A DNA stretch of 64,000 nucleotides from Minisyncoccota bacterium (lineage in GTDB: Bacteria; Patescibacteriota; Minisyncoccia; Phycocordibacterales; CAIZLB01), in NCBI GenBank assembly GCA_021734945.1, contig JAIPIA010000003.1, forward strand, positions 156,895-220,894, read 5' to 3'. Position 1 is the stretch's first letter, and each line of letters opens with the position of its first letter. Below are positions 1 to 53,558 of this stretch, one piece after another. The notes under the pieces are model-generated. The model was given only the letters and a program-made list of their open reading frames with translations, ran no database searches and was not told the origin of the DNA. Both the position numbers and the translations under genes were made by a program.

Positions 1-462
1 TCCAGAAAAATCTGAGACTGTACCAGTAAAGATACTAGCTAAGTCACCTACTGAGACACTAGCGGGAATATCTGGGAAAAAAGTTTTTACAGTGTTATAT
101 GTTCCAGCATGAATAGGGCTTAGTATATCTATAGTCTTGATGTGTTTTGGTAGATTGTTGATAGCAGAAACTGTCTCAGTATATAGAGGTGGAATAACGA
201 AAGTAAAGGCGCCCGCAACAAAGGCGACTATAGAGATATACATAGACACAGCTGCCAAGACCCGAGGAAACCCTCTTTTTACAAACCAACGAGTTCCAGG
301 TTCAATGACAGAAGCAATCACAACTGAAGAGAGAATGATAAGGAGGAGCCCGCGAAGTTGATATGCAAAATAGACAGCTAAAGCAAAAACAAACACTTTA
401 AAAAGCGTACCCATACTGATGTGTAGGCTCAGCTTTTTTAGTTCTACTTCTTGCTCTTTCAT
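1..462 (-). CDS. AI-2E family (PerM/UPF0118-like) membrane transporter, N-terminal part; CDS continues past the window start
   Basis: Minus-strand ATG at 460-462. Translation MKEQEVELKKLSLHISMGTLFKVFVFALAVYFAYQLRGLLLIILSSVVIASVIEPGTRWFVKRGFPRV shows hydrophobic helices typical of the AI-2E N-terminus. It is absent from the ORF track because it runs off the window edge. Confidence 0.5.
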   Translation of the reverse strand, partial: MKEQEVELKKLSLHISMGTLFKVFVFALAVYFAYQLRGLLLIILSSVVIASVIEPGTRWFVKRGFPRVLAAVSMYISIVAFVAGAFTFVIPPLYTETVSAINNLPKHIKTIDILSPIHAGTYNTVKTFFPDIPASVSVGDLASIFTGTVSDFSG

Positions 463-4958: not shown

Positions 4959-6947
4959 CTAGTTACTATCCGCCCCACCCACCTTATCATCACCATATTT
5001 GAATTTTGGATCTGTCTCAATCTTAATATCCAATGGTTCAGCTTTAATCTCTGTAATTTGACCTGTAAAATTATCCTTACCAGCAATCCTCTGATCCGTA
5101 ACGATAACTGGAGTAGAATTAATCTGACCAATACTTGGTAAGAATGAGACCTGGAAAGCAAAATCCTTTGCAGACTGTGAGTAACCTATTCCTGATTGCA
5201 TATCACCTACTCTCCATGATATTTGTTTTTTATCAGCATTAAATGTTACAGGACTATTGTTTGGATATGTTTGCCCTAGCCACTCTACGTACTGCGGAAG
5301 CGTCGCGGTATACACAACATCCTTTACACTATTGTATGAATTTTTAAGACTTACAAGCACTGTATATGTAGACGCTTGTTCAGGCATTGTAGGTATAGGG
5401 CCTGTATTAACAAAAGGTCCAACATTACGTACCAATCTTGTTGTAAGGTTTAAGTCTGAAGCTATTTTTACAGTTCGAGAAACGTTTGAAGATAGTTCTT
5501 CGGGTACCTTATCCTCATTCAATCGTTTTGCTCGAATAGAAAGTTCAACCTTTAAAGTCTGATTTTTAAATGTAGCGTTGTTTTCTGTACTAGGTTTAAG
5601 GGCAGCAAAACTAAATTGTAGTCGTCCTGTAGAACCAGACTTAACTTCAGCAAGTTCTTTAATTGTTGAATTATCCCAGACTATAGTGTTATCAACAGAA
5701 CGATAAAAACCCTGATTACCTTGAATAGATGACTTATCAAGCATTGGACCTGTGATTCTCGCTTGAATAACAGCGTCGTTTATAGGTACATCCAAATTAT
5801 TTTGATATGTAATTTCACCCTGAATTCCATCACCTGAATGAGCTACATACACGGGATCATTTTTTCCATCAAGAGAAATGTCCGCACTGAGAAACGGTCG
5901 CTTAAGTGTGATTGTTGTTGAATTATTTACAAATACTGTACCTATAGCCAACTTATCTGTTACGTCTTCTGTTCCTGTATAAAATCTAAATACTCGTTGT
6001 TGCAATTCTCCACCAAGAATACGTCCTCTCAATACTATTTCTCTTTCTTCACCAGGTTTAATATCTCCAAGAACCCATGTTGAATTATCACCAGCTGTTG
6101 ATGGCACTGCAGAAATGAAATCAAAACCAAATGGGTACTCAGCTTTAAAGATAAGGCCTTTTATAATTGAAGAACTATTTGAACGAACAGTAATTCTAAA
6201 TTCATTTTCCTGCTCTGGTACGACTTCAGATGCAGAATCAACATTTACAGAAATAGGCGAAGAGCCAATAAAAATTGGATACTGTTTATCTTTCAAAAAA
6301 ATATTTGTTGAACCCTCAATACGGTATTCTAGCGAGACCTTAATATTTTTCTTTGAATTTTCCTCACCAAATAATACAGATTTTATATTTTCACGCACTG
6401 TTTGTCCTTTTCCAATTGTTCCGAGAGAAATACGATCTTGTGTCATTGAAGTTACTCTATCATCAGCATTCCTTGTCCCCTCTGGATATGTAATAACAAG
6501 ATCAGCCAACAACAAATCTGTAGTGTTTCTATTTGTTATATCTACATCAAGAGAAAGTGCTTCACCTGCAGGACTTGTTACAGGTCCAAGGAGTCTGATA
6601 TCAATATTATTACTCGAAACAAAATTTGAACCTGTGTAAAAAGTATATCCAGCAAATCCAAGAGCAAGAACAAAAAATACAGAAACTACAGCCAAGATTC
6701 TCTTGAATGGATTTCCTTTAGATTTTATACTTCTTACATCTAGACCTTTTGCGCCTCCATATGAACTGAATGTTACAGCTTCCTCATCTTTTGCTATTTT
6801 TCCATCATCTTCATCGTCCTTCCACGAACTATTAACTATAACGCTGTGACGTTGCAGTCTCACTCTCGGCTCTTCTGGCATCTCTTCGCCAGAGTTTGAA
6901 AACAATTTCCGTTTTAGACCTTCTATTTTACTATCATCAATAGACAT
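4959..6947 (-). CDS. large membrane-anchored surface protein with repetitive beta-rich ectodomain, function unknown
   Basis: 662 aa with a single TM helix (ILAVVSVFFVLALGFAGYTFY) after a charged N-terminal region; the Asn/Thr/Ser-rich remainder has no catalytic motif. Confidence 0.5.
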   Translation of the reverse strand: MSIDDSKIEGLKRKLFSNSGEEMPEEPRVRLQRHSVIVNSSWKDDEDDGKIAKDEEAVTFSSYGGAKGLDVRSIKSKGNPFKRILAVVSVFFVLALGFAGYTFYTGSNFVSSNNIDIRLLGPVTSPAGEALSLDVDITNRNTTDLLLADLVITYPEGTRNADDRVTSMTQDRISLGTIGKGQTVRENIKSVLFGEENSKKNIKVSLEYRIEGSTNIFLKDKQYPIFIGSSPISVNVDSASEVVPEQENEFRITVRSNSSSIIKGLIFKAEYPFGFDFISAVPSTAGDNSTWVLGDIKPGEEREIVLRGRILGGELQQRVFRFYTGTEDVTDKLAIGTVFVNNSTTITLKRPFLSADISLDGKNDPVYVAHSGDGIQGEITYQNNLDVPINDAVIQARITGPMLDKSSIQGNQGFYRSVDNTIVWDNSTIKELAEVKSGSTGRLQFSFAALKPSTENNATFKNQTLKVELSIRAKRLNEDKVPEELSSNVSRTVKIASDLNLTTRLVRNVGPFVNTGPIPTMPEQASTYTVLVSLKNSYNSVKDVVYTATLPQYVEWLGQTYPNNSPVTFNADKKQISWRVGDMQSGIGYSQSAKDFAFQVSFLPSIGQINSTPVIVTDQRIAGKDNFTGQITEIKAEPLDIKIETDPKFKYGDDKVGGADSN

Positions 6948-32511: not shown

Positions 32512-32638
32512 ATGATTTATTTTGATTTGGCAGACTATAATTAGTGTTTAACTAAGAACGTAGACGTACCACGCAGACTTATATGACTATTATACTCTTA
32601 TAAAAATTAAATGGAGAACTTGGTCACAGGTTATTCAT

Positions 32639-32732
32639 GTGGTCACAGGTTTCCTCACTGCAGTTCGGAACCCACTACCCCGACTCGCGTGTCTCGTCTA
32701 TTAACTCGACATCGCTCCGTCTCGCCCATGCA
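32639..32732 (-). repeat. GC-rich ~95-nt element, copy B of a duplicated tRNA-adjacent module (GUGCAUGGGCGAGACGGAGC.AUGUCGAGU ... GUGACCAC)
   Basis: The first ~45 nt are near-identical to 50395-50440 on the plus strand, and both copies end in GUGACCAC. It lies just 3' of tRNA-Leu and its terminator. Confidence 0.45.
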
Positions 32733-32766
32733 CAAAAAAAGACCAGAGCAGTCCGGTCTTTTTTGT
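32732..32766 (-). terminator. intrinsic terminator after tRNA-Leu (GACUGCUCUG-containing hairpin between A7 and U6-7)
   Basis: Minus strand reads AAAAAAGACCGGACUGCUCUGGUCUUUUUUUG; its loop motif is shared with the tRNA-Lys terminator. Confidence 0.5.
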
Positions 32767-32770
32767 CATG

Positions 32771-32854
32771 TGCGCGGGAGAGGACTTGAACCTCCATGCC
32801 CTTGCGGGCGCTACCACCTCAAGGTAGTACGTCTACCAGTTTCGCCACCCGCGC
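32771..32854 (-). tRNA. tRNA-Leu (anticodon GAG), long variable arm; CCA not encoded
   Basis: Acceptor GCGCGGG/CCCGCGC, anticodon stem CUACC/GGUAG with loop UUGAGGU, variable arm CGCCCGCAAGGGCAUG, T-arm GAGGUUCAAGUCCUC. It overlaps the spurious plus-strand ORF 32611-32907. Confidence 0.85.
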
Positions 32855-34611: not shown

Positions 34612-35286
34612 TTAAAAGATTCCAGCAATAAGTAATTTAAGTATTTTATTAGTCCACCCCTTAATTCTTAGAAACAATCTCGTGTCACACACATAAATAT
34701 CGAATGTACCAAATGGTAAATTATTTTTTAACCCCTTACTCGAGGTACTTGGTTTTACATAAGTTTTAAAAAAATTAGTTTTGGCAATACCTGTCACATT
34801 TGACCAGTATTTTTCAGCTTCGAAAACTTGAACCTGAGAATGAGTATGTATATGGCCTTTAAATTTACCTTTTGGAACGTCACATACGTCTTGTAAAAAT
34901 TTCATCATCAATTTGATTACCTGAGGATTACTATTTGAGAATCGAACAAGACCTCGTTGAGTCTTTCCCCCTTCAGCAAGATAAAGCATTACACCAGCAA
35001 CTCTTAAATCTTTCTTATCCAAATTTTGAATTTCTTTTTCTGCTGCGTCTATTATATTTTGTCTTTTCAAATCCTCATTCTTTAATCTTGATTGCCTCCG
35101 CCTTTCAATAACCTCAAAATCAGTATTTTTTAACTTTAAAGTATATTTTTGATCTTTATTCAAAACAACACTCCTTACCCAAAGACTCACACTTGCCTTA
35201 GAAACACCTAATATATTGGCTATTTCAAGTATAGACATACCTTCCTCTCTATATTTAATAGCTTGTTGCTTTTCTTTATATTTCAT
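34612..35286 (-). CDS. HTH-containing protein with possible LAGLIDADG-like nuclease core, hypothetical
   Basis: N-terminal HTH (MSILEIANILGVSKASVSLWVR); downstream LYLAEGGKT resembles a degenerate LAGLIDADG motif; adjacent to tRNA-Val. Confidence 0.3.
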   Translation of the reverse strand: MKYKEKQQAIKYREEGMSILEIANILGVSKASVSLWVRSVVLNKDQKYTLKLKNTDFEVIERRRQSRLKNEDLKRQNIIDAAEKEIQNLDKKDLRVAGVMLYLAEGGKTQRGLVRFSNSNPQVIKLMMKFLQDVCDVPKGKFKGHIHTHSQVQVFEAEKYWSNVTGIAKTNFFKTYVKPSTSSKGLKNNLPFGTFDIYVCDTRLFLRIKGWTNKILKLLIAGIF

Positions 35287-36815: not shown

Positions 36816-37316
36816 TTAAACTTCAAACTTCTCAAGTATATCTTTACACTTTCCAACTATAACCATTGCGTACTCATCCTTCTCGATTCCAATTTTCTCA
36901 TACCAAGACATAGGAAATTCTTTTCCAGCAAAGGTTATCCCTTCAAAAGTTTCTGCATTATATTTATGCAAAGCTCTCTCAATTACTTTTTTAAACAAAT
37001 CCTTACCTATTCCTCTGCTCTGAGACGAAGGATCAACAAAAAGCATTCCATCATTACATCGAATATCTGTCCGCCAAGGTTTTATATTTACTACCATGCC
37101 ACCGAGTGGTGTACCATCTTCACCAATCGCCACATAAAACAAATCTGGCTGTTTTTTGATCCAATATTTCAAATTTTCGTAAGAATGACCTTCATCCCAG
37201 GGTTTTTCTGGGTCAGCTTGAGTAAATGATTTAGACAAAGCTTTTGATAAAGAAGGCAAATCTTTTTCCTCAATCAATCTAAGTGTATACATAATTTGCA
37301 GTAAATAATACCACAC
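36816..37316 (-). CDS. GNAT-family N-acetyltransferase; start likely MYTLRLIEE
   Basis: Acetyl-CoA-binding motif QSRGIGKDLFKKVIE. Confidence 0.7.
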   Translation of the reverse strand: MWYYLLQIMYTLRLIEEKDLPSLSKALSKSFTQADPEKPWDEGHSYENLKYWIKKQPDLFYVAIGEDGTPLGGMVVNIKPWRTDIRCNDGMLFVDPSSQSRGIGKDLFKKVIERALHKYNAETFEGITFAGKEFPMSWYEKIGIEKDEYAMVIVGKCKDILEKFEV

Positions 37317-37332
37317 TCCATCAAAATTCTTT

Positions 37333-37407
37333 TGGTGCCCTCGGTAGGAATCGAACCTACAATAACGGCTTAGAAGTCCGCAGTTATATCCATTTAACTA
37401 CAAGGGC
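37333..37407 (-). tRNA. tRNA-Arg (anticodon UCU), CCA encoded
   Basis: GCCCUUGUAGUUAAAUGGAUAUAACUGCGGACUUCUAAGCCGUUAUUGUAGGUUCGAUUCCUACCGAGGGCACCA; the 31-39 pair is A-G. Confidence 0.7.
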
Positions 37408-42177: not shown

Positions 42178-43314
42178 ATGAAAAAAGCTCTATTTCTCAT
42201 GTTAAACAGGTCACATGACCAAAATTCTATAAAAGATGGAGGGCCTGCTTTGACTAGTGAATTAACAAAAGCTCTTAAACGTAAAAATTATTCCATTGAT
42301 TATATAAGTGGAAATGATATGGCTAAAACAAAACAACACTCAGACTTATCCCCCCTTCTACAACGTATACAAAAAGCAAATGAATTCGGAAAATTTGTTG
42401 ATAAAAATATTTTTAAAGATTATGATTTAATTTTTCTTTCGCACCCAAGCACCGCAATGGGTTTCGAGGCTACAGATTTTCCTATTGAAAAGACCGTTTT
42501 ATTTCCTACCCTACTCGGGAGAGAGTATGCACATTTTATGGAAGTACCAAAAGAATATATAGATTTAGAAAAGAAAATACTTAGTTTCGGATACAAAATT
42601 CAAACACCCTCTAATCAGCAATTTAAAATATTAAACGAAGAATACAATGTTCCAAAAGAGAATATTTTAATTAAACAAAGAGGTTTTTCACCATCTATTT
42701 TTCCAATCAAAGTAAGACACCTACGTAATGATGTTTCTAAAGAAAAACCATTGCGACTAATGAGCGCTAACGCTGTAAGACCCCAAAAAGGCTACATGGA
42801 ATTAATAGACATTGTCGATTTTTGTATAAAAAAAGAATTACCAGTTCAAATAGTTATATATGGTGACACTATTCAATCAAGCAATGAAACATATCTTAAA
42901 TATGCACAGAATTTTGTTGATAAGGTCCAAGAGAAGAATCTTCAAGAATATTTTGAATTTCATCCTTCTGTTGAACAAGAATTATTAAGTAAAGAGATGG
43001 AAAAAGTTGACCTTGCAATAATACCTTCAATCTATGAAAGTTTTGGTAAATCAGCCTTGGAAGCATCAGCAAGTGGTTTACCTACCATTGTCTTTGATGA
43101 CATTTCTGTATATAGAGAATTTTTAAATGATCAGACTGCTATTTTTACTAAAAGAAATCCTAAAGATTTTTACAAATCTATTATCGAATTGATTTCTGCG
43201 CCTGAAAAATATAACAACATCAGTATAAGTGGCATAGAAAATGGAAAAAAATATGTTTCTGAGAATATATATGACGAATTAATTCAGGAGATAGAAGACA
43301 TCTCTAGTAATTAA
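42178..43314 (+). CDS. family 4 (GT4) glycosyltransferase
   Basis: GT4 C-terminal signature IPSIYESFGKSALEASASGLPTIVFDD. Confidence 0.7.
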   Translation: MKKALFLMLNRSHDQNSIKDGGPALTSELTKALKRKNYSIDYISGNDMAKTKQHSDLSPLLQRIQKANEFGKFVDKNIFKDYDLIFLSHPSTAMGFEATDFPIEKTVLFPTLLGREYAHFMEVPKEYIDLEKKILSFGYKIQTPSNQQFKILNEEYNVPKENILIKQRGFSPSIFPIKVRHLRNDVSKEKPLRLMSANAVRPQKGYMELIDIVDFCIKKELPVQIVIYGDTIQSSNETYLKYAQNFVDKVQEKNLQEYFEFHPSVEQELLSKEMEKVDLAIIPSIYESFGKSALEASASGLPTIVFDDISVYREFLNDQTAIFTKRNPKDFYKSIIELISAPEKYNNISISGIENGKKYVSENIYDELIQEIEDISSN

Positions 43315-43913
43315 TCTTTCAAAATAGATATCAAGAATTTAATCTTTTCAATATCGTCCAAATTTTTTTGTCTTACCTTAAGACCAACTTGATTATGCCA
43401 ACCAATCTTTTCTTCAAGTAGATATTCTAACTTTAAAAATCTAGCTTTTACTCCTAAGAAAGATATTTCAACACTAGCATCGCGAGCATTAGTACTAAAT
43501 TTTAATAATTTTCCATGACTTGGCATAGTTGCACGACCAAATTCATCTTCCCAATATCTATGTATATCAGCATGGCAGTACATTGGTTTATCTTCTCTTG
43601 CTTGATCTACTTTGTAACACTCTCCTCTCACTTCTTCAGGCTCATACACAACATGACCCTTACTTTCCAAAAAAACTTTTATTCTTTCTACCGTCAAACT
43701 ATCAGCCATAAGATCAATATCACCATGCTGTCTTGTAAAATACCCACAATGAGCATCAATTGCAAAACCCGCCAAAAAATAGACTACCCACCCTTCTGTT
43801 AATGCCTCACTAGCAATTTCTTTATATAAAATTAAAGATCTCTTACTTCTTTCATCCAAAGCATCTAGTGGCATTGGTGGGTATTTTTCCTCTAGATTAG
43901 GAGAACACATCAT
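43311..43913 (-). CDS. ANT(2'')/Lnu-family nucleotidyltransferase (aminoglycoside/lincosamide nucleotidyltransferase-like)
   Basis: GWVVYFLAGFAIDAHCGYFTRQHGDIDLM aligns with the AadB catalytic region LWIGGGWAIDARLGRVTRKHDDIDL; length 200 aa. Confidence 0.55.
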   Translation of the reverse strand: MMCSPNLEEKYPPMPLDALDERSKRSLILYKEIASEALTEGWVVYFLAGFAIDAHCGYFTRQHGDIDLMADSLTVERIKVFLESKGHVVYEPEEVRGECYKVDQAREDKPMYCHADIHRYWEDEFGRATMPSHGKLLKFSTNARDASVEISFLGVKARFLKLEYLLEEKIGWHNQVGLKVRQKNLDDIEKIKFLISILKD

Positions 43914-45104: not shown

Positions 45105-45351
45105 CACTAAAAATAAAATAACCTGCCATAAGGTATTTTTTTACATTCTATTCGACAAAACAAAAAGGATAGATTGAATCTTTACTTATGTTATTCTTTA
45201 GACATATGACCTATGAAGATTTTGAACAATATCAAAGAGATGAGGAAGAAAGAAGGCGTCGAGAAGGAAAACATCTTGATGATCAGAAAATTGATGCAAC
45301 TATAGATGAGGATAATAAATAAAAATAATATTTTACTCAAATATAAATTCA

Positions 45352-49816: not shown

Positions 49817-50114
49817 AAACCCACAAAAAGGAATAGTTGATTTTTTTGAAGCACTAAGCTTTAAACCGAGTTCATACTATATAAAGACCCTTTCTATTGC
49901 AGAAATTGTTATGGGTATCGCTCTCTTTTTCGGCTTTCTTACTCAAATAGCAGCATTAGTAGTAGCGATAATTACTTTTGTTTCACTTCTAGTTACAATA
50001 AGGCACCCGGAAGCAGGACTTCAAAAAGCTTCTCTGTACACTCTATTTTTTGTAATATCTATCTCTCTCGTCCTCACAGGAGCTGGGCTTATAGCTATCG
50101 ACTTACCTCTCTAG
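49710..50114 (+). CDS. DoxX-family membrane protein
   Basis: 134 aa with 4 TM helices and a DoxX-like N-terminus. Confidence 0.45.
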   Translation: MTNPFPELLTFSLLAPTLLRLTLGIFVILLGYNKLKNPQKGIVDFFEALSFKPSSYYIKTLSIAEIVMGIALFFGFLTQIAALVVAIITFVSLLVTIRHPEAGLQKASLYTLFFVISISLVLTGAGLIAIDLPL

Positions 50115-50278
50115 TCCAAGGAAACACATAACCAATAACTGAGTAAAATTTAGTAAAGAAGACTTAGTTAGGGTTGCTACTTTAGTATTTTCTGATATAT
50201 TTCTTGGTATTCTGTTTGTTTTTTGAGGCCTGTATTTTATAGGTCAAAATATGAACAATATAGATACAGATTAGACAT

Positions 50279-50351
50279 GCGCTCGTAGCTCAGTCGGTAG
50301 AGCAGCTCCCTTTTAAGGAGATGGTCGTAGGTTCGATTCCTACCGAGCGCA
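50279..50351 (+). tRNA. tRNA-Lys (anticodon UUU); CCA not encoded
   Basis: GCGCUCGUAGCUCAGUCGGUAGAGCAGCUCCCUUUUAAGGAGAUGGUCGUAGGUUCGAUUCCUACCGAGCGCA. Confidence 0.9.
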
Positions 50352-50361
50352 CAAAGATTCA

Positions 50362-50394
50362 AAAACCCAGACTGCTCTGCTGCAGTCTTTTTTC
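50362..50394 (+). terminator. intrinsic terminator after tRNA-Lys
   Basis: AGACUGC-UCUGCU-GCAGUCU followed by UUUUUU. Confidence 0.6.
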
Positions 50395-50496
50395 GTACAT
50401 GGGCGAGACGGAGCTATGTCGAGTCAGCAGATGAGACAAGCGAGGCGGGGTCGAGGAAATCTGCGAGCGACCGGCGAGTAGATTATCCGTGACCAC
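50395..50496 (+). repeat. GC-rich ~100-nt element, copy A of the duplicated tRNA-adjacent module; followed by a second weak hairpin and U-tract
   Basis: GUACAUGGGCGAGACGGAGCUAUGUCGAGUCAGCAGAUGAGACAAGCGAG ... GUGACCAC; the 5' ~45 nt are near-identical to the minus-strand copy at 32639-32732. Confidence 0.45.
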
Positions 50497-50529
50497 TAAC
50501 TTTCGTGGTTTTGGTATACTTATATTTAA

Positions 50530-51333
50530 ATGAAAACTCTCCTTATCGACAAAGATCGCTACATGATAAAAACTGCGAATCTGGACAAAATCACCGGCAA
50601 ATGGAAAGACGCTGTCGATGCTGCAATTGATGTATATAAAAAAGTATTCGGTGAAAGCTTGGTGTCCGTATATGTTGGAGGAAGTGTTGCCTGCGGTGAA
50701 GCGATAGAAAGTAAGTCTGACATTGACACATATGCTGTTTTAAATATTCCACAAGAGAAAGTTGAAGAGATTGTTAAGACAACGCTCGACGGAGAAAGAT
50801 TAAGGCTTGATAGTGAATTTCCATTTCTCACAAAATTTGAAATGCATGCGTATTCACTTGATATTTTAGGTATTCGAAAACAATTTCAGTTGAGAATTTT
50901 AGCGGTTTGCGTGTACGGTAAAAATTTTGACGCAGATTTCCCAAATTACCCCTTAACAAGAGAAACGTTCCAAAAAGTGCGAATAAGCATGTCCGGCGAT
51001 ATTGAAAAAGCTCGATTGCAACTACAGAAAGCTGATTTGAGTCAGCCTGAATATTCTAAGTATGTTGCAACTGGTGCTCGATGGGTCGCAAAGAGATTGA
51101 TTCGAAACGCAGGAACATTAGCACTTTGGAAGGAAAATTTTTACACAATGAACGTACCAATGATGGCTGAAATATTCGCAGAAGCATATCCAGATAAAAA
51201 GGCAGAGATTGGGGTTCTGCTGAGTTGGGTTGAAAATCCACCAAGTGACGCAAATGTAGTCTTGAATGTTTTAGACACATTTGGTAAATGGCTCATTGAG
51301 GAAGATGAGAGGGTGTTTGGAAAAATGGAGTGA
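50530..51333 (+). CDS. AadA-like ANT(3'')/ANT(9)-family nucleotidyltransferase (aminoglycoside adenylyltransferase-like)
   Basis: NTase motif VSVYVGGSVACGEAIESKSDIDTYAVL and a C-terminal helical (DUF4111-like) domain; 267 aa matches the family size. Confidence 0.55.
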   Translation: MKTLLIDKDRYMIKTANLDKITGKWKDAVDAAIDVYKKVFGESLVSVYVGGSVACGEAIESKSDIDTYAVLNIPQEKVEEIVKTTLDGERLRLDSEFPFLTKFEMHAYSLDILGIRKQFQLRILAVCVYGKNFDADFPNYPLTRETFQKVRISMSGDIEKARLQLQKADLSQPEYSKYVATGARWVAKRLIRNAGTLALWKENFYTMNVPMMAEIFAEAYPDKKAEIGVLLSWVENPPSDANVVLNVLDTFGKWLIEEDERVFGKME

Positions 51334-51464
51334 TATATAAAAATTTGCTCAATTAATTCCCTTAAGGTTTAAGCAGCCTCCTCCCTTTGCAAAGCTCTAA
51401 TAAACAACAACTTATTATAAAGACCATCCATATACTCCCTGTTGGACAGGATAGTTATAATATC

Positions 51465-51545
51465 GTTACGTCTGCCGCACAGTAAAATAAAATGGTCTGC
51501 CATAAGGTATGGCTATTTTATTTACACCCGTTCGATAGGATGAGA
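51465..51545 (+). repeat. partial duplicate of tRNA-Arg 3' end plus ~60 nt of its downstream flank (copy of ~45090-45175)
   Basis: cgtctgccgcacag-taaaataaaatggtctgccataaggtat ... acacccgttcgatagg parallels tRNA-Arg 3' cctgccgagagcacac-taaaaataaaataacctgccataaggtat ... acattctattcgacaaaac ... ggatag. Confidence 0.45.
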
Positions 51546-51646
51546 AAGCCGGACTGAAGCTTCGATGTGAACTAATACGATTTAGTTAGTGAACCAGAAG
51601 CAAAAGAGGAGGGGTCAACAGGACTTTTGTATAACAAAAAGAAAGG

Positions 51647-51671
51647 GTGACCGATTCCTACCAAGCGCACA
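51647..51671 (+). repeat. direct repeat of the tRNA-Lys 3' end (att-like), ~1.3 kb downstream of the tRNA
   Basis: GUGACCGAUUCCUACCAAGCGCACA versus tRNA-Lys 3' GGUUCGAUUCCUACCGAGCGCACA (20 of 21 matches from CGAUUCC); followed by an AGACUGC-containing U-rich tract like the tRNA-Lys terminator. Confidence 0.5.
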
Positions 51672-51746
51672 TGACAAAAAAGACTGCACTACTTCATTCT
51701 TTTTTTTACACATCCACGATATCAATACTTTGCTATACTTGTTTTC

Positions 51747-52775
51747 ATGAATAGACCTGAAAAACATCTATCCTTCGAAACTCCAACAGGAAAAAGTCGC
51801 CAAGAACTCACAAACGACGCAGTTATCTTTCTAGAAAAGACTGGCGCGTTCGAACTTTTTAATGACCCAGTCAGAAAATCTGAATGGATTCAAACAACAA
51901 CAGCAGAAGAAGCTGAACAATATATTGAGAGATTAAATGGGATTTTAATAGGAAACCCGATTTATAAAAGAGAGATATATGAAAATCCAGGTATCCTTGT
52001 TGATCCAGATGATAATTTAGTCGACAAACCTACAAACCCAGAAATATCAAGACACCTTTTCAGAGATCTTATTTTTCCAGCGTGTCAAAGAATACCTATT
52101 AATGATGCCTCTGAACTTATGGCAACGTCGATAAATTTACTTCACATGTTTCCGGACGGTAATGGCAGGACGTCTCGATCGACTTATTCCCTCTTTTTTG
52201 AACCTACTCGTGCAAAAATTAAACCACAAGAAAGGAAAGAATTTTTAGAGTGGCAGACAGGAGAACAAAAAGGTGTATTAAATTGGAATCCTCGTTTAAT
52301 TAGATCTAATATTAATTCAATTATTAGAAATAGAATTGATTCAACCAAACCAAGCTTTTTAGAAGCACAAGAATCTTCTGCATTTCCTGAAGAGATATTG
52401 AATTACAAAGGAGAAAACCTTGCTATACAATCTTTAAGAGAAACTTGTCTTTCGAGAGACCCTGATGTCGCTATGGCACTTATTATGCACGCAGGTCGAA
52501 ATGAACTTAACCCAGACGAATTCATTGTAAAAGGAAACAAACTTCTCAATAACCAAAAGATTCTTGAGAGTGTGGATGAATCAACTGCAGTAAGTGTTCT
52601 GGAGTGTCTCGAAACAATTAAGATGCTAAGGGTGGTCACACTTGTTGATGTTTTTGAACACCCAAATGAATATAAAAGCCCGATTGATACCTATAACCTA
52701 AAAGAATATTTTGAATTACTTGTAAAAACAAAAGCTCTTCAAGAACAAAATCCTGATTTAGATATTTCATCCTAA
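51747..52775 (+). CDS. Fic/Doc-family protein (putative AMPylase/toxin-like)
   Basis: Canonical Fic motif HMFPDGNGRTSR (HxFx[DE]GNGRxxR); no (S/T)xxxE(G/N) inhibitory motif found by eye. Confidence 0.7.
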   Translation: MNRPEKHLSFETPTGKSRQELTNDAVIFLEKTGAFELFNDPVRKSEWIQTTTAEEAEQYIERLNGILIGNPIYKREIYENPGILVDPDDNLVDKPTNPEISRHLFRDLIFPACQRIPINDASELMATSINLLHMFPDGNGRTSRSTYSLFFEPTRAKIKPQERKEFLEWQTGEQKGVLNWNPRLIRSNINSIIRNRIDSTKPSFLEAQESSAFPEEILNYKGENLAIQSLRETCLSRDPDVAMALIMHAGRNELNPDEFIVKGNKLLNNQKILESVDESTAVSVLECLETIKMLRVVTLVDVFEHPNEYKSPIDTYNLKEYFELLVKTKALQEQNPDLDISS

Positions 52776-52823
52776 ATTATTTTACCTACAACTATGGATT
52801 CTCTTACCACATTCCTCTCTTCA

Positions 52824-53558
52824 CTAAGAGAAACACAACCTCTCCAACTCAATCATAAAATCAACTTCTCCTCTATGTGCCTTGTGATACATATCCAACA
52901 GACTATCCAAAAAAATCGCTAACTCCTCTTTTTTCCAATTCTTTTTGAAACTTTGGCATTTTGAAAACGTATAAGGTTTCATATCAACATCATGAGCAGA
53001 CTGAGCATCATAAGCCATATATAAAGACTTAAATTGCCACCATACTACTCCGTGAATTTCCTCAGCCGCCAAACTATCCAAAGAAAGTTCCTGAAATAGT
53101 TTCCATGAATTCACTTTATTCCGCGAAGCAAGGGCATCAGCAAATGCAAATGTTTGTGGTGCTTTTTTACCACCACCAATAGTGCCTTCGCCACCAATTA
53201 CTTTTAGATTATGTTCCTCTATTTTTTCAGCCTTCTTTTCAAGTTTTGTAAGTAAAGCTTTATTAATTTTTGAATCCAATATTATACAAACATGCTCCGA
53301 CCCACTCAATTCTCCTATCCTCTCTTCAATATAATCAACTGATTCTTTATTAGAAATAAGTGAGTCCAAAATAATAATATTTTTGGGAGTAAAAAGATTC
53401 ACCCCAGAGAGCACTTCATCCAAAAAACCTTGATTCCAATTTTCAGGAGACAGACGAAAGAGAGTAGCGTCAGGACGCTTTGACTGCAAAACACCTACCA
53501 AGGATTGGAGTTTACTTCTGCCTTTTTGAGTATCTGTTCCATGTATTACGTAAAGCAT
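52824..53558 (-). CDS. holA: DNA polymerase III delta subunit-like (HolA), reduced form
   Basis: N-terminal YVIHGTD ... LFRL pattern resembles the delta-subunit start. Confidence 0.45.
   Translation of the reverse strand: MLYVIHGTDTQKGRSKLQSLVGVLQSKRPDATLFRLSPENWNQGFLDEVLSGVNLFTPKNIIILDSLISNKESVDYIEERIGELSGSEHVCIILDSKINKALLTKLEKKAEKIEEHNLKVIGGEGTIGGGKKAPQTFAFADALASRNKVNSWKLFQELSLDSLAAEEIHGVVWWQFKSLYMAYDAQSAHDVDMKPYTFSKCQSFKKNWKKEELAIFLDSLLDMYHKAHRGEVDFMIELERLCFS

Follow-up and report, generated by a model that had tools for sequence, protein, structure and literature searches.

The question raised by this locus is whether the 3' end of a tRNA-Lys gene, which recurs downstream of that gene, marks the two ends of an element that integrated there. 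The sequence-only reading of the window (the whole stretch of DNA analysed here, 64,000 nucleotides long) had taken the repeat for an attL/attR signature around an islet of about 1.3 kb carrying an AadA-like nucleotidyltransferase (NTase) gene and no integrase. Our results suggested that the interval between tRNA-Lys and a downstream holA-like gene is probably a recombination-prone hotspot for accessory genes, a mosaic of structured element units, an orphan NTase gene and a Fic-domain gene.

The repeat itself was confirmed. The tRNA-Lys(UUU) gene lies at 50279-50352 on the plus strand (ARAGORN; Rfam RF00005 at 74 bits), and the pattern search placed the upstream copy of the repeat at its last 20 nt, from T-loop position C56 on (CGATTCCTACCGAGCGCACA, 50334-50353, plus strand). 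The downstream copy (CGATTCCTACCAAGCGCACA, 51652-51671, plus strand) differs from it by one mismatch, with 19 of 20 nt the same. In 100 dinucleotide-preserving shuffles no match with three or fewer mismatches was obtained, and the only other matches in the pattern search were the genuine tRNA-Arg genes at 37334 and 45087. The recurrence of the tRNA 3' end was thus borne out, and the chance match that the sequence-only reading had asked about was checked, with none expected. When 50354-50400 was aligned with 51672-51719, the likeness ran on, in diverged form, into the trailer hairpin.

The features between the two copies, all on the plus strand, were then placed. Directly after the tRNA, a trailer at 50354-50394 (terminator scan and alignments) consists of an A-tract, a hairpin with its stem at 50369-50388 and a T-tract. 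It is terminator-like on both strands, in agreement with the tRNA-Lys terminator assigned earlier to the bracketed DNA, and related trailers also follow tRNA-Leu in the window and tRNA-Lys in locus L009 of the closest relative. The GC-rich element of about 100 nt had also been recognised correctly. This unit, copy A (50393-50496; nhmmer and covariance model R1), has a GC content of 0.53 against a background of about 0.35, contains two covarying hairpins, hp1 and hp2, and ends in GTGACCAC at 50489-50496. R1 matched it at 92.5 bits (50402-50496, E 8e-20), 50 nt after tRNA-Lys. A TATACT -10-like box at 50515-50520 lies just 5' of the NTase gene at 50530-51333 (267 aa; ORF list, Pfam, AF2 and Foldseek). 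The GC content of this gene is 0.33-0.42 and that of the flanks about 0.30-0.40, and the GC-rich part is the 100-nt element only. The NTase is the sole ORF of at least 100 aa between the repeats (ORF list, Pfam), which is consistent with the reported absence of an integrase there.

Downstream of the NTase gene, a decayed tRNA-Arg(gcg)-like 3' end and an Arg-type trailer hairpin occupy 51472-51527 (plus strand). The tRNA-Arg fragment described earlier is therefore present but small (CTGCCGCACA, 51472-51481); the hairpin behind it has its stem at 51499-51513 (terminator scan and fold), and 51484-51510 is 89% identical to the tRNA-Arg(gcg) trailer at 45110-45136 (blastn). Next comes a decayed element, copy B (51534-51652, plus strand), which was read by eye against the family consensus and with RNAfold, and which is too degenerate for R1 and stays below its detection. 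Copy B contains an anti-T-arm remnant (GATAGGATGAGAAAG, 51534-51548) that agrees with the consensus GTAGGAATCGAAAG at about 10 of 15 positions, followed by an hp1-like hairpin and hp2 (GGGGTCAAC...GGGTGACC, 51611-51652), both recovered by RNAfold. The downstream copy of the tRNA-Lys 3' end abuts its GTGAC(C) end. Copy B thus has the GTGAC(C) junction and the tRNA-Lys copy, whereas copy A is a variant without closing helix that has neither anti-segment nor tRNA copy.

Beyond the repeat, a decayed trailer on the plus strand (TGACAAAAAAGACTGCAC...TTTTTTTT, 51672-51719; alignments and the L009 sequence) has the same beginning as the trailers of tRNA-Lys in L009 and of tRNA-Leu in the window, and 51665-51684 matches 32775-32756 at 100%. 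It is followed by ACACATCCACGA, the decayed start of a further element of the copy A type. The Fic-domain gene (51747-52775, plus strand; ORF list) lies outside the repeat; it scored 19.1 bits with Pfam Fic, for which the gathering cutoff is 24, and its HxFx(D/E)GNGRxxR motif is seen as HMFPDGNGRTSR. The holA-like gene for DNA polymerase III delta (Pfam DNA_pol3_delta_C) is at 52824-53558 on the minus strand. The window holds a second instance of this arrangement at 32610-32854 on the minus strand, where tRNA-Leu(gag) (32770-32854) is followed by a trailer hairpin and an element at 32639-32726 (R1, 74 bits; 44 nt after tRNA-Leu), and these by GTGACC and AAGTTCTCC, in which the tRNA-Leu 3' end recurs in decayed form. 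Between copy A and 32743-32677 of this instance the identity is 87%. A tmRNA, a permuted tmRNA or another known RNA in 51334-51671 was rejected, with no match by ARAGORN or Rfam.

Comparison with related Paceibacteria showed that the tRNA-Lys/holA interval is a hypervariable hotspot, with holA as its conserved right flank (synteny in more than 30 loci). The gap is 27-46 nt in L010, L017, L030 and L059, so that the empty tRNA-Lys site proposed for relatives was indeed found, in distant relatives only. Elsewhere the interval spans 0.9-5.6 kb and holds mutually unrelated ORFs, including a serine recombinase with a Phage_CRI Rep protein in L023 and PemK toxins, NUDIX, RDD and aminotransferase cargo in other relatives. 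In L009, the closest relative (Fpg 75% identical), the order is tRNA-Lys, GC-rich element, NTase (89% identical) and holA, with 3 nt separating the NTase and holA stop codons; neither the downstream repeat nor the Fic gene is there, and tblastn gave no match to the Fic gene in L009 or any other related locus. The downstream repeat falls inside the extra segment specific to the window, 51334-52823, and not at its edge. With the element and the NTase present in L009 but the repeat and the Fic gene missing, the 1.3 kb is not a single unit between an attL and an attR, nor does the repeat mark the limit of NTase presence or absence, a history of the window that is read against this single close relative.

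These results changed how the attL/attR signature is to be read. It stood in so far as the repeat is non-random and begins in the T-loop as tRNA att sites do; it fell as the boundary of an islet, because L009 shows the same gene order with the NTase and without the repeat, an outcome that the sequence-only reading had itself set against its proposal, and because a decayed structured-element copy lies directly 5' of the downstream repeat.

The repeat and the GC-rich element are members of one family of structured elements of about 100-170 nt each. The parts of an element are a trailer hairpin, an anti-segment, a GAAAG junction, two hairpins and a direct copy of the tRNA 3' end. The anti-segment is the reverse complement of the adjacent tRNA from U54 on (T-loop, T-stem and sometimes acceptor strand), and the tRNA copy always begins at T-loop C56, directly after GTTC. 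A search of 921 kb of related genomes with R1 gave 22 copies, each of which lies 42-263 nt 3' of a same-strand tRNA. A metagenome scan, whose search pattern required GGAATCGAAAG and therefore gave a biased sample, yielded at least 120 loci at tRNAs of at least 16 specificities; in 93 of the 121 matches listed, a tRNA on the same strand ends 9-82 nt before the match (one at 191 nt). When the 131 tRNAs of the related loci were searched for a copy of their own 3' end, it was found downstream of 14 and upstream of none, which makes such copies a trait of the family throughout the lineage. The junction GTGACC/GATTCC is common to L020, L030, L040 and L043 and occurs in 52 of the 85 distinct metagenome elements among the matches listed. 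Of the same 85 elements, again among the matches listed, 82 have an anti-segment that complements the tRNA perfectly for 9 nt or more, counted from U54, and the downstream tRNA copy decays, with 18 nt or more kept in only 28.

The fold of the element was supported by covariation. RNAalifold showed compensatory changes in 16 of 23 pairs, and among 109 distinct sequences double changes were seen in 21 of 23 pairs, with the G.U pair kept in 99. Across these sequences 95% of cells were paired, as compared with 71% in shuffles and at most 50% with the partner slid, percentages that are inflated by an alignment fitted to the model. RNAfold predicted a closing helix and a three-way junction in every intact copy, and this helix tracks the identity of the tRNA (Arg, Ser, Lys, Trp, Gly, Pro, Ala, His and others). 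Tandem arrays of elements were found in L063, L036, L016 and L285, and near-identical copies at Arg-tct and Arg-gcg in L040. Chimeras also occur: copy B is of Arg type on its left and of Lys type on its right, and L333 combines a Trp-type anti-segment with a Tyr-type copy. In L304 the direct repeat reaches about 40 nt into the trailer; its right end is not fixed, which makes a target duplication of fixed stagger unlikely, and a target-site duplication of fixed length was rejected on the varying 3' limit of the repeat in L304, L063 and the window trailer. A repeat at 1034 nt in L333, considered as a sign of a cargo-bearing element, proved to be a second tRNA-Trp-like gene.

The element is apparently undescribed and widespread in Patescibacteria, just 3' of tRNA genes. 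In Rfam 15 cmscan searches of window positions 50100-51800, L040 4900-6200 and L276 9480-9960, tRNA alone was above threshold and no other credible match appeared at E values up to 5-10; the open-access full texts searched contained no description of it. No mobilising enzyme was found next to the elements or in a partial check of the ORFs of the window, where no recombinase was seen among the ORFs of at least 150 aa inspected (17 with Pfam, the others judged by their first 60 residues). No excised form was seen, nor any empty/filled pair among near-identical genomes. An origin from a phage attP was rejected, as scans of viral_contigs with short element patterns gave chance matches only and R1 detected no element in 100 of the 163 viral loci retrieved. 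A known self-cleaving ribozyme or the 5' end of a group II intron behind the terminator was also rejected, there being no Rfam match and, by eye, neither CUGAUGA at the junctions nor a domain V; one study reports that Patescibacteria have no group II introns (PMC13011429). The element was likewise rejected as a leader or riboswitch of the NTase, since copies stand in front of unrelated genes or, in L027, of another tRNA, and homologues of the NTase at other places are without it.

The NTase is a separate accessory gene beside the element. It carries the Pol-beta NTase motif (20.5 bits with Pfam NTP_transf_2, whose gathering cutoff is 21), and G51-S52, D64xD66 and E104 are invariant in its alignment with 11 homologues, showing that the catalytic triad is intact, including the active-site Asp pair, which had been singled out for checking. 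The AF2 model (pLDDT 91.5) has a two-domain ANT-like fold, with 5lpa, 5g4a and 6xz0 as top Foldseek matches (TM 0.45-0.55). AadA, AAD(9) and ANT(4') were matched at E 8e-6 and TM 0.53-0.55, and the whole set of ANT(3'')(9)/AadA, ANT(9), ANT(4')/KNTase and Lnu at E 8e-6 to 6e-4 and TM 0.33-0.55. Like ANT enzymes, the protein combines an N-terminal Pol-beta NTase domain with a C-terminal helical domain in about 260 aa and has the G-S...DxD...E set, but identity to them is just 12-16%, and a PDB sequence search with it returned nothing at E up to 1. The NCBIfam scores were 14.9 bits against a cutoff of 340 for ANT_9, 14.2 against 505 for ANT_9_Ic and 10.8 against 550 for AadA37. The likeness to AadA and ANT(9) therefore holds for the fold and fails for family membership, and the label of an antibiotic-type NTase was not sustained: the gene missed the AadA and ANT(9) thresholds and is not a known resistance gene. 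It belongs to a family of its own, with about 1,258 clusters at 50% identity and no annotation. By analogy with ANT enzymes, it most likely transfers a nucleotide to a hydroxyl of a small molecule or protein. Its homologues P0002, P0003, P0008 and P0010 stand in differing contexts without a tRNA, and the idea that the element or tRNA sites regularly carry the NTase as cargo was rejected on these grounds.

A single islet of about 1.3 kb, inserted into tRNA-Lys by an integrase since lost or acting in trans and leaving attL and attR behind, would account for a non-random direct repeat that begins in the T-loop, and for a downstream copy that keeps the ancestral trailer of the L009 type, as a displaced original 3' end would; some relatives also have an empty site, and in L023 it is occupied by a bona fide element with a recombinase. 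This explanation is nevertheless improbable, given the L009 locus (element and NTase at this site, attR missing, holA 3 nt away), the position of the repeat inside the extra segment, the second, decayed element copy that it abuts with an Arg-type fragment in front, the NTase homologues elsewhere without tRNA linkage, and an NTase GC content near background. Still less probable is an ordinary tandem duplication of the tRNA-Lys gene that left the repeat behind as a pseudo-tRNA without its 5' part, independent of any element and with the NTase simply lying in the spacer. Likeness that extends past the tRNA end into the trailer is what a segmental duplication gives, and tRNA 3' fragments are described as frequent by-products of rearrangements in PMC9897764, but the identity sets in precisely at C56, with the family's hp2 and GTGAC(C) end before it, and this junction is found again at numerous tRNAs of numerous genomes, a pattern that duplications arising independently and at random would not produce.

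Under the mosaic hotspot that we consider probable, the locus would comprise tandem units of the tRNA-linked element, one well preserved (50393-50496) and at least one decayed (51534-51652), both with a tRNA 3' end and a trailer hairpin in front, and an orphan NTase gene that would be transcribed independently. The presumed attR at 51652-51671 would be the copy of the tRNA 3' end that as a rule adjoins an element at its GTGAC(C) end, and it would not delimit the NTase. As to the element, we lean tentatively towards a small non-autonomous selfish element. Its single-stranded fold, as RNA or ssDNA, might be recognised by an enzyme acting in trans, with insertion at the T-loop of a tRNA gene and with a replacement 3' end and trailer supplied by the element, so that repeated insertion and unequal crossing-over could build arrays; recombination between dispersed copies could then shuffle the NTase, Fic and other genes to tRNA-proximal sites. 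It is just as conceivable, and to be held with the same reserve, that the family represents an undescribed class of nucleic acid, either an RNA that mimics the 'top half' of a tRNA, with one such RNA for each cognate tRNA, or a miniature mobile element that recognises tRNA genes through base-pairing. In the mobile version, the anti-T-arm segment may act as the guide, insertion would occur after the T-loop GTTC, and the tRNA 3' end would be rebuilt.

Rather unlikely, though well ahead of the islet, is that the element is the gene of a tRNA-like non-coding RNA, co-transcribed with the tRNA, and not mobile DNA. The anti-segment, equivalent to the 5' strands of the acceptor and T-stem of a tRNA, would pair with the downstream tRNA 3' copy, and this 'top-half tRNA' helix would close the three-way junction; tRNA-style processing (RNase P, 3' trimming, CCA addition) might give a partner, a decoy or a processing signal, and the window repeat would be the 3' strand of a pseudogenised copy. 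In its favour, the covariation is strong, specific to the strand and includes a conserved G.U pair; the orientation is always the same at tens of nt from the tRNA, every intact copy has the predicted closing helix and junction in a form that tracks tRNA identity, and at tRNA genes with an encoded CCA the copy, too, has CCA behind it. A terminator often stands behind the copy and not behind the tRNA; several loci lack one between tRNA and element but have a good one past the copy, which fits co-transcription as an RNA gene. Against such an RNA stand the patchy distribution at orthologous tRNAs among relatives, the tandem arrays, the large number of truncated copies, an acceptor part that is often absent or bulged in the helix, the pairing of the discriminator and C74, unlike a chargeable tRNA end, and the copy A type of variant, including the best-preserved copy of the window, which lacks the closing helix. 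Most copies retain GATTCC after GTGACC, at the helix base, even where the rest of the tRNA copy has decayed, which indicates that a short closing helix is constrained; this fits a functional RNA and a mobile element equally.

Comparison with known systems gave partial likenesses. As in tRNA-targeting integrative elements and islands, whose tyrosine-integrase att sites reach from the T-loop to the 3' end, the repeat has its start within the T-loop and leaves the tRNA intact, a variable hotspot with tandem arrays is formed, and the displaced downstream copy decays. Unlike them, the units are only about 100-170 nt long with no integrase inside or adjacent, one conserved core serves tRNAs of at least 16 specificities, the element carries an inverted T-arm copy and a covarying two-hairpin core, and the repeat varies in length on its 3' side. 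Repeats that act through a folded strand include REP/REPIN with RAYT, palindromic elements derived from IS200/IS605, integron attC and folded att sites of the CTX-phage type. All these repeats are, like the present family, short, multi-copy and strand-specific, with compensatory hairpins and arrays, and the element would share with them the dependence on an enzyme encoded elsewhere. The element differs from them in being strictly tied to the 3' end of tRNA genes in the orientation of the tRNA, in having one helix tailored to the adjacent tRNA, in showing no recognisable family consensus (GTAG head, R/L boxes), and in having no demonstrated association with an HUH transposase, IntI or Xer. In tRNA-like RNAs (the tRNA-like domain of tmRNA, mascRNA, YrlA), the 5' and 3' ends form a helix equivalent to acceptor and T-stem, as in the element, whose place beside tRNA genes in the same orientation suggests processing by tRNA enzymes. 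In the element, however, a paired AAUCG/CGAUU segment and a three-way junction take the place of the T-loop, the D-arm and anticodon arm have no counterpart, the acceptor part is often imperfect, and the Rfam models of these RNAs gave no match.

For annotation, these results mean that in these genomes a repeat of a tRNA 3' end alone is no evidence of an integrase-borne island, and that 'AadA-like' is not to be taken as a resistance gene. A strongly covarying, tRNA-tailored element found at tRNAs of at least 16 specificities and at least 120 metagenome loci has no Rfam model. If it is an RNA, it would be a new class of tRNA-associated RNA, and this in organisms whose RNA-processing machinery is minimal. 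As a mobile element it would represent a new route of targeting tRNA genes and a plausible driver of tRNA-proximal hotspots with their NTase, Fic, PemK, NUDIX and recombinase elements; should the guide-type mobile element prove true, the shuffling of accessory genes at the tRNA loci of reduced genomes would also be driven by it.

The tRNA-Lys(UUU) gene of this Candidatus Pacebacteria MAG was called at 50279-50352 by ARAGORN and Rfam, and its last 20 nt were found again at 51652-51671 with one mismatch. This tail had zero matches in shuffles, and the other near-matches were only two genuine tRNA-Arg genes with the T-arm in common; at the repeat, diverged similarity ran beyond the tRNA end into the trailer. 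The sequence-only reading had described a 1.3-kb islet bounded by this repeat as attL/attR, and the features it named were all present: besides the repeat, these are an ORF (50530-51333), the GC-rich sequence after tRNA-Lys (50393-50496; 0.53 GC) and, at 51472-51527, a short fragment resembling tRNA-Arg together with a trailer of Arg type. As it had also stated, the ORFs between the repeats included no recombinase; nor was one seen among the inspected window ORFs of at least 150 aa, 17 window ORFs being scanned with Pfam and the others read over their first 60 residues.

The GC-rich element was 87% identical to the sequence immediately after the window's tRNA-Leu gene, and weaker copies followed other tRNAs in relatives. 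In two other loci, L020 and L040, the element ends in GTGACC and is directly followed by a copy of the adjacent tRNA's own 3' end, and the same junction was found in the window at 51645-51671. The unit consists of a trailer hairpin, an inverted copy (anti-segment) of the tRNA T-loop and T-stem (e.g. GTAGGAATCGAA) reaching the acceptor strand in some cases, a GAAAG junction, two hairpins (hp1 and hp2), and a tRNA copy starting at C56, and RNAfold predicted that the anti-segment pairs with the tRNA copy and so closes a three-way junction. Among 131 tRNAs of the window and loci, 14 had a downstream copy of their own 3' end at 43-158 nt, L033 (678 nt) and the window (1300 nt) being outliers, and none had a comparable upstream copy. 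The segment 51334-51746 can be read on this plan: first come a 3' fragment and trailer of Arg type, next a degraded anti-segment with hp1 and hp2 (ending GGGTGACC), and then the tRNA-Lys copy, followed by a degraded trailer of the type seen in the closest relative (L009) and by the start, also degraded, of one more element. The supposed attR at 51652-51671 therefore belongs to a decayed array of element units.

Variants of the unit were also observed. A third core type (L060, L024, L023 tRNA-Arg, L053 at about 2300-2440, L063) differs in its hairpins (ACTTTTCG...CGAAAAGT), and what it shares with the element is limited to the anti-T-arm, GGAATCGAA(A)G, and the 3' copy of the tRNA; a further subtype (L236, L343, L310, L281, L063) carries an extra conserved hairpin, AGC...GCGT, between acceptor-like and T-stem-like strands. 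In L036 (5685-5820) and L033 (2656-3400), tRNA-Lys is followed by tandem repeats of another unit, 61 nt long and made up of a tRNA-Lys 3' copy and AGTTATTGTAAGCATCTCCCTTGCATGGTGTGGGTCGTTATTC; the first such unit of L033 has grown to 678 nt and encodes a 125-aa membrane-like ORF.

RNAalifold on eight copies gave two hairpins with compensatory changes in 16/23 pairs. The covariance model of the core (R1) had 22 matches at E <1e-3 in 921 kb, its E-values being rough; each of these matches had a tRNA on the same strand 42-263 nt upstream, the larger distances belonging to second or third tandem copies. A metagenome scan yielded at least 120 loci, a sample skewed by the pattern used to search, in which 25 bases were specified. 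Among the matches listed, a same-strand tRNA was upstream in 93 of 121, ending 9-82 nt before the match with one exception at 191 nt; the tRNAs were specific for Trp, Pro, Gly, Arg, Ala, Leu, Glu, Tyr, Met, Asp, His, Val, Cys, Thr and Lys, and some 100-190 nt downstream of about 45 of these listed matches the tRNA 3' end recurred exactly or nearly so. For 109 distinct model-aligned sequences, 95% of cells were paired versus 71% in shuffles and at most 50% with partners slid, and double changes occurred in 21/23 pairs, counts that lean toward the model to which the alignment was fitted. One G.U pair was retained in 99/109, which assigns the structure to the tRNA-sense strand. Of 85 distinct elements, 82 had an anti-segment perfectly complementary to their tRNA from U54 onward for 9 nt or more, 52 retained the junction CGATTCC, and 28 had a complete downstream tRNA copy (at least 18 nt), the copy being truncated in the rest. 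Three representative regions gave no Rfam match, and searches of open-access literature turned up no published description. Anatomy, strict tRNA linkage, fold and the tailoring of one helix to the adjacent tRNA were demonstrated for the element.

Also demonstrated were multi-copy and tandem arrangement, decay of distal copies, concerted trailer evolution between loci, and chimeric units, the latter being the decayed window copy (51534-51652) and L333. On the reverse strand of L333 (230-450), the element behind tRNA-Trp combines an anti-segment of Trp type with a downstream copy of tRNA-Tyr type, which suggests that copies of the element have recombined; ~1 kb further downstream (about 1240-1353) is another tRNA-Trp-like gene, which contains an insert. 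In L040, the tRNA-Arg(tct) and tRNA-Arg(gcg) loci (20-270, minus strand; 5784-6040, plus strand) match at 100% identity from the T-arm onward, trailer and anti-segment included, and differ, with compensatory changes, in the apical parts of hp1 and hp2, giving identical flanks around a variable core.

The tRNA-Lys site was compared in 59 related Paceibacteria loci, obtained from a genome-contig scan with the upstream Fpg protein as query. The order Fpg, SpoU, DoxX, tRNA-Lys, variable interval and convergent holA was widely conserved. In L010, L017, L030 and L059 the gap is 27-46 nt with a terminator alone inside, which is the empty site that had been predicted; in other loci it spans 0.9-5.6 kb, with ORFs mostly unrelated from genome to genome (NUDIX, RDD and aminotransferase among them). 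This variation in size and cargo makes the interval a genuine hotspot. L009 has tRNA-Lys, trailer, GC-rich element, nucleotidyltransferase (NTase, 89% identical) and holA, the convergent stop codons of the last two 3 nt apart; the downstream repeat and the Fic gene (51747-52775 in the window) are both absent at this locus. Compared with this one close relative, the window has an extra segment, 51334-52823, containing the repeat, and the arrangement tells against a single islet.

Other contents of the interval were noted. The 5.6-kb insert of L023 (12189-17785), probably an inovirus-like or plasmid-like element that has integrated, lies directly against tRNA-Lys. It encodes a large serine recombinase (Resolvase, Recombinase and Zn_ribbon_recom matches), whose ORF abuts the tRNA, together with a Phage_CRI protein for rolling-circle replication. 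Homologous PemK/MazF-type toxin ORFs occur in L013 (12580-12969), L020 (15536-15922) and L049 (12405-12797). At the syntenic position of tRNA-Lys in five related genomes, ARAGORN called a tRNA with anticodon tta ('tRNA-Stop', which would read UAA; L029 12234-12307, L031 12437-12510, L047 12607-12680, L053 7654-7727, L057 11736-11809), which could be a suppressor/recoding tRNA or a mis-called anticodon.

The 267-aa NTase (NCBI locus K9M11_04720, contig of 230,953 bp) scored 20.5 bits against Pfam NTP_transf_2, below the threshold of 21, and 11-15 bits against the NCBIfam ANT(9) and AadA models, far under their cutoffs of 340-550. Across 11 close homologues alignable end to end, G51-S52, D64-x-D66 and E104 were invariant, indicating that the Pol-beta catalytic set, with its Asp pair D64 and D66, is intact. 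The structures nearest to its AlphaFold model (pLDDT 91.5) were AadA, AAD(9), ANT(4'), LinB and HalB, at TM 0.33-0.55 and 12-16% identity, and a profile search found no sequence-level PDB relative. Profile search of 1.84 billion representatives gave a family of ~1,258 clusters, mostly of 260-280 aa, a few being fusions with a protein kinase, GNAT or HxlR domain; homologues on other contigs had unrelated neighbourhoods without a tRNA. The protein is therefore an ANT-fold nucleotidyltransferase of an unannotated family outside AadA/ANT(9), its likeness to AadA being one of fold. The observation behind the sequence-only reading was sound and its islet interpretation only partly so: the NTase 'islet' is nothing unusual, being an accessory gene at a tRNA-proximal hotspot and no member of a resistance family.

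Accessory-looking genes are grouped beside tRNAs throughout the window. On the minus strand, a 200-aa ORF (43311-43913) matching Pfam Aminoglyc_resit (ANT(2'')-type NTase; 25.2 bits, gathering cutoff 21) is a second NTase-type accessory gene, between tRNA-Ser (41312) and tRNA-Arg (45033), and a GNAT acetyltransferase ORF (36816-37316) and an HTH_23 ORF (34612-35286) adjoin tRNA-Arg(tct) and tRNA-Val, respectively. The NTase and Fic genes each have a TATACT box (50515-50520 and 51734-51739) 7-10 nt before their ATG, as do genes that follow elements in L009 (about 6291-6296) and L049; this common position suggests very short or leaderless transcripts and a shared promoter context.

As to how the element may work, the reading we prefer, tentatively and at a little under even chances, is that of a non-autonomous mobile mini-element. 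Its single-stranded fold would be the recognition structure, and it would enter at the T-loop after GTTC and supply a replacement 3' end, which would account for the fixed left junction, the arrays and the patchy distribution at orthologous tRNAs, as well as for decaying distal copies and hotspots. A tRNA-like 'top-half' RNA co-transcribed with its tRNA, the less likely of the two readings, would account for why the short closing helix is conserved, why tRNA identity is tracked and why terminators stand after the tRNA copy; the two are compatible with each other.

Whether the element is mobile or a co-transcribed RNA, near-identical repeats dispersed at tRNA 3' ends would be substrates for homologous recombination, and recombination between them would be the simplest route by which NTase and Fic reached the tRNA-Lys site. 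The object of interest is the element family itself, for which the earlier terms were just 'GC-rich 100-nt element' and 'att repeat'.
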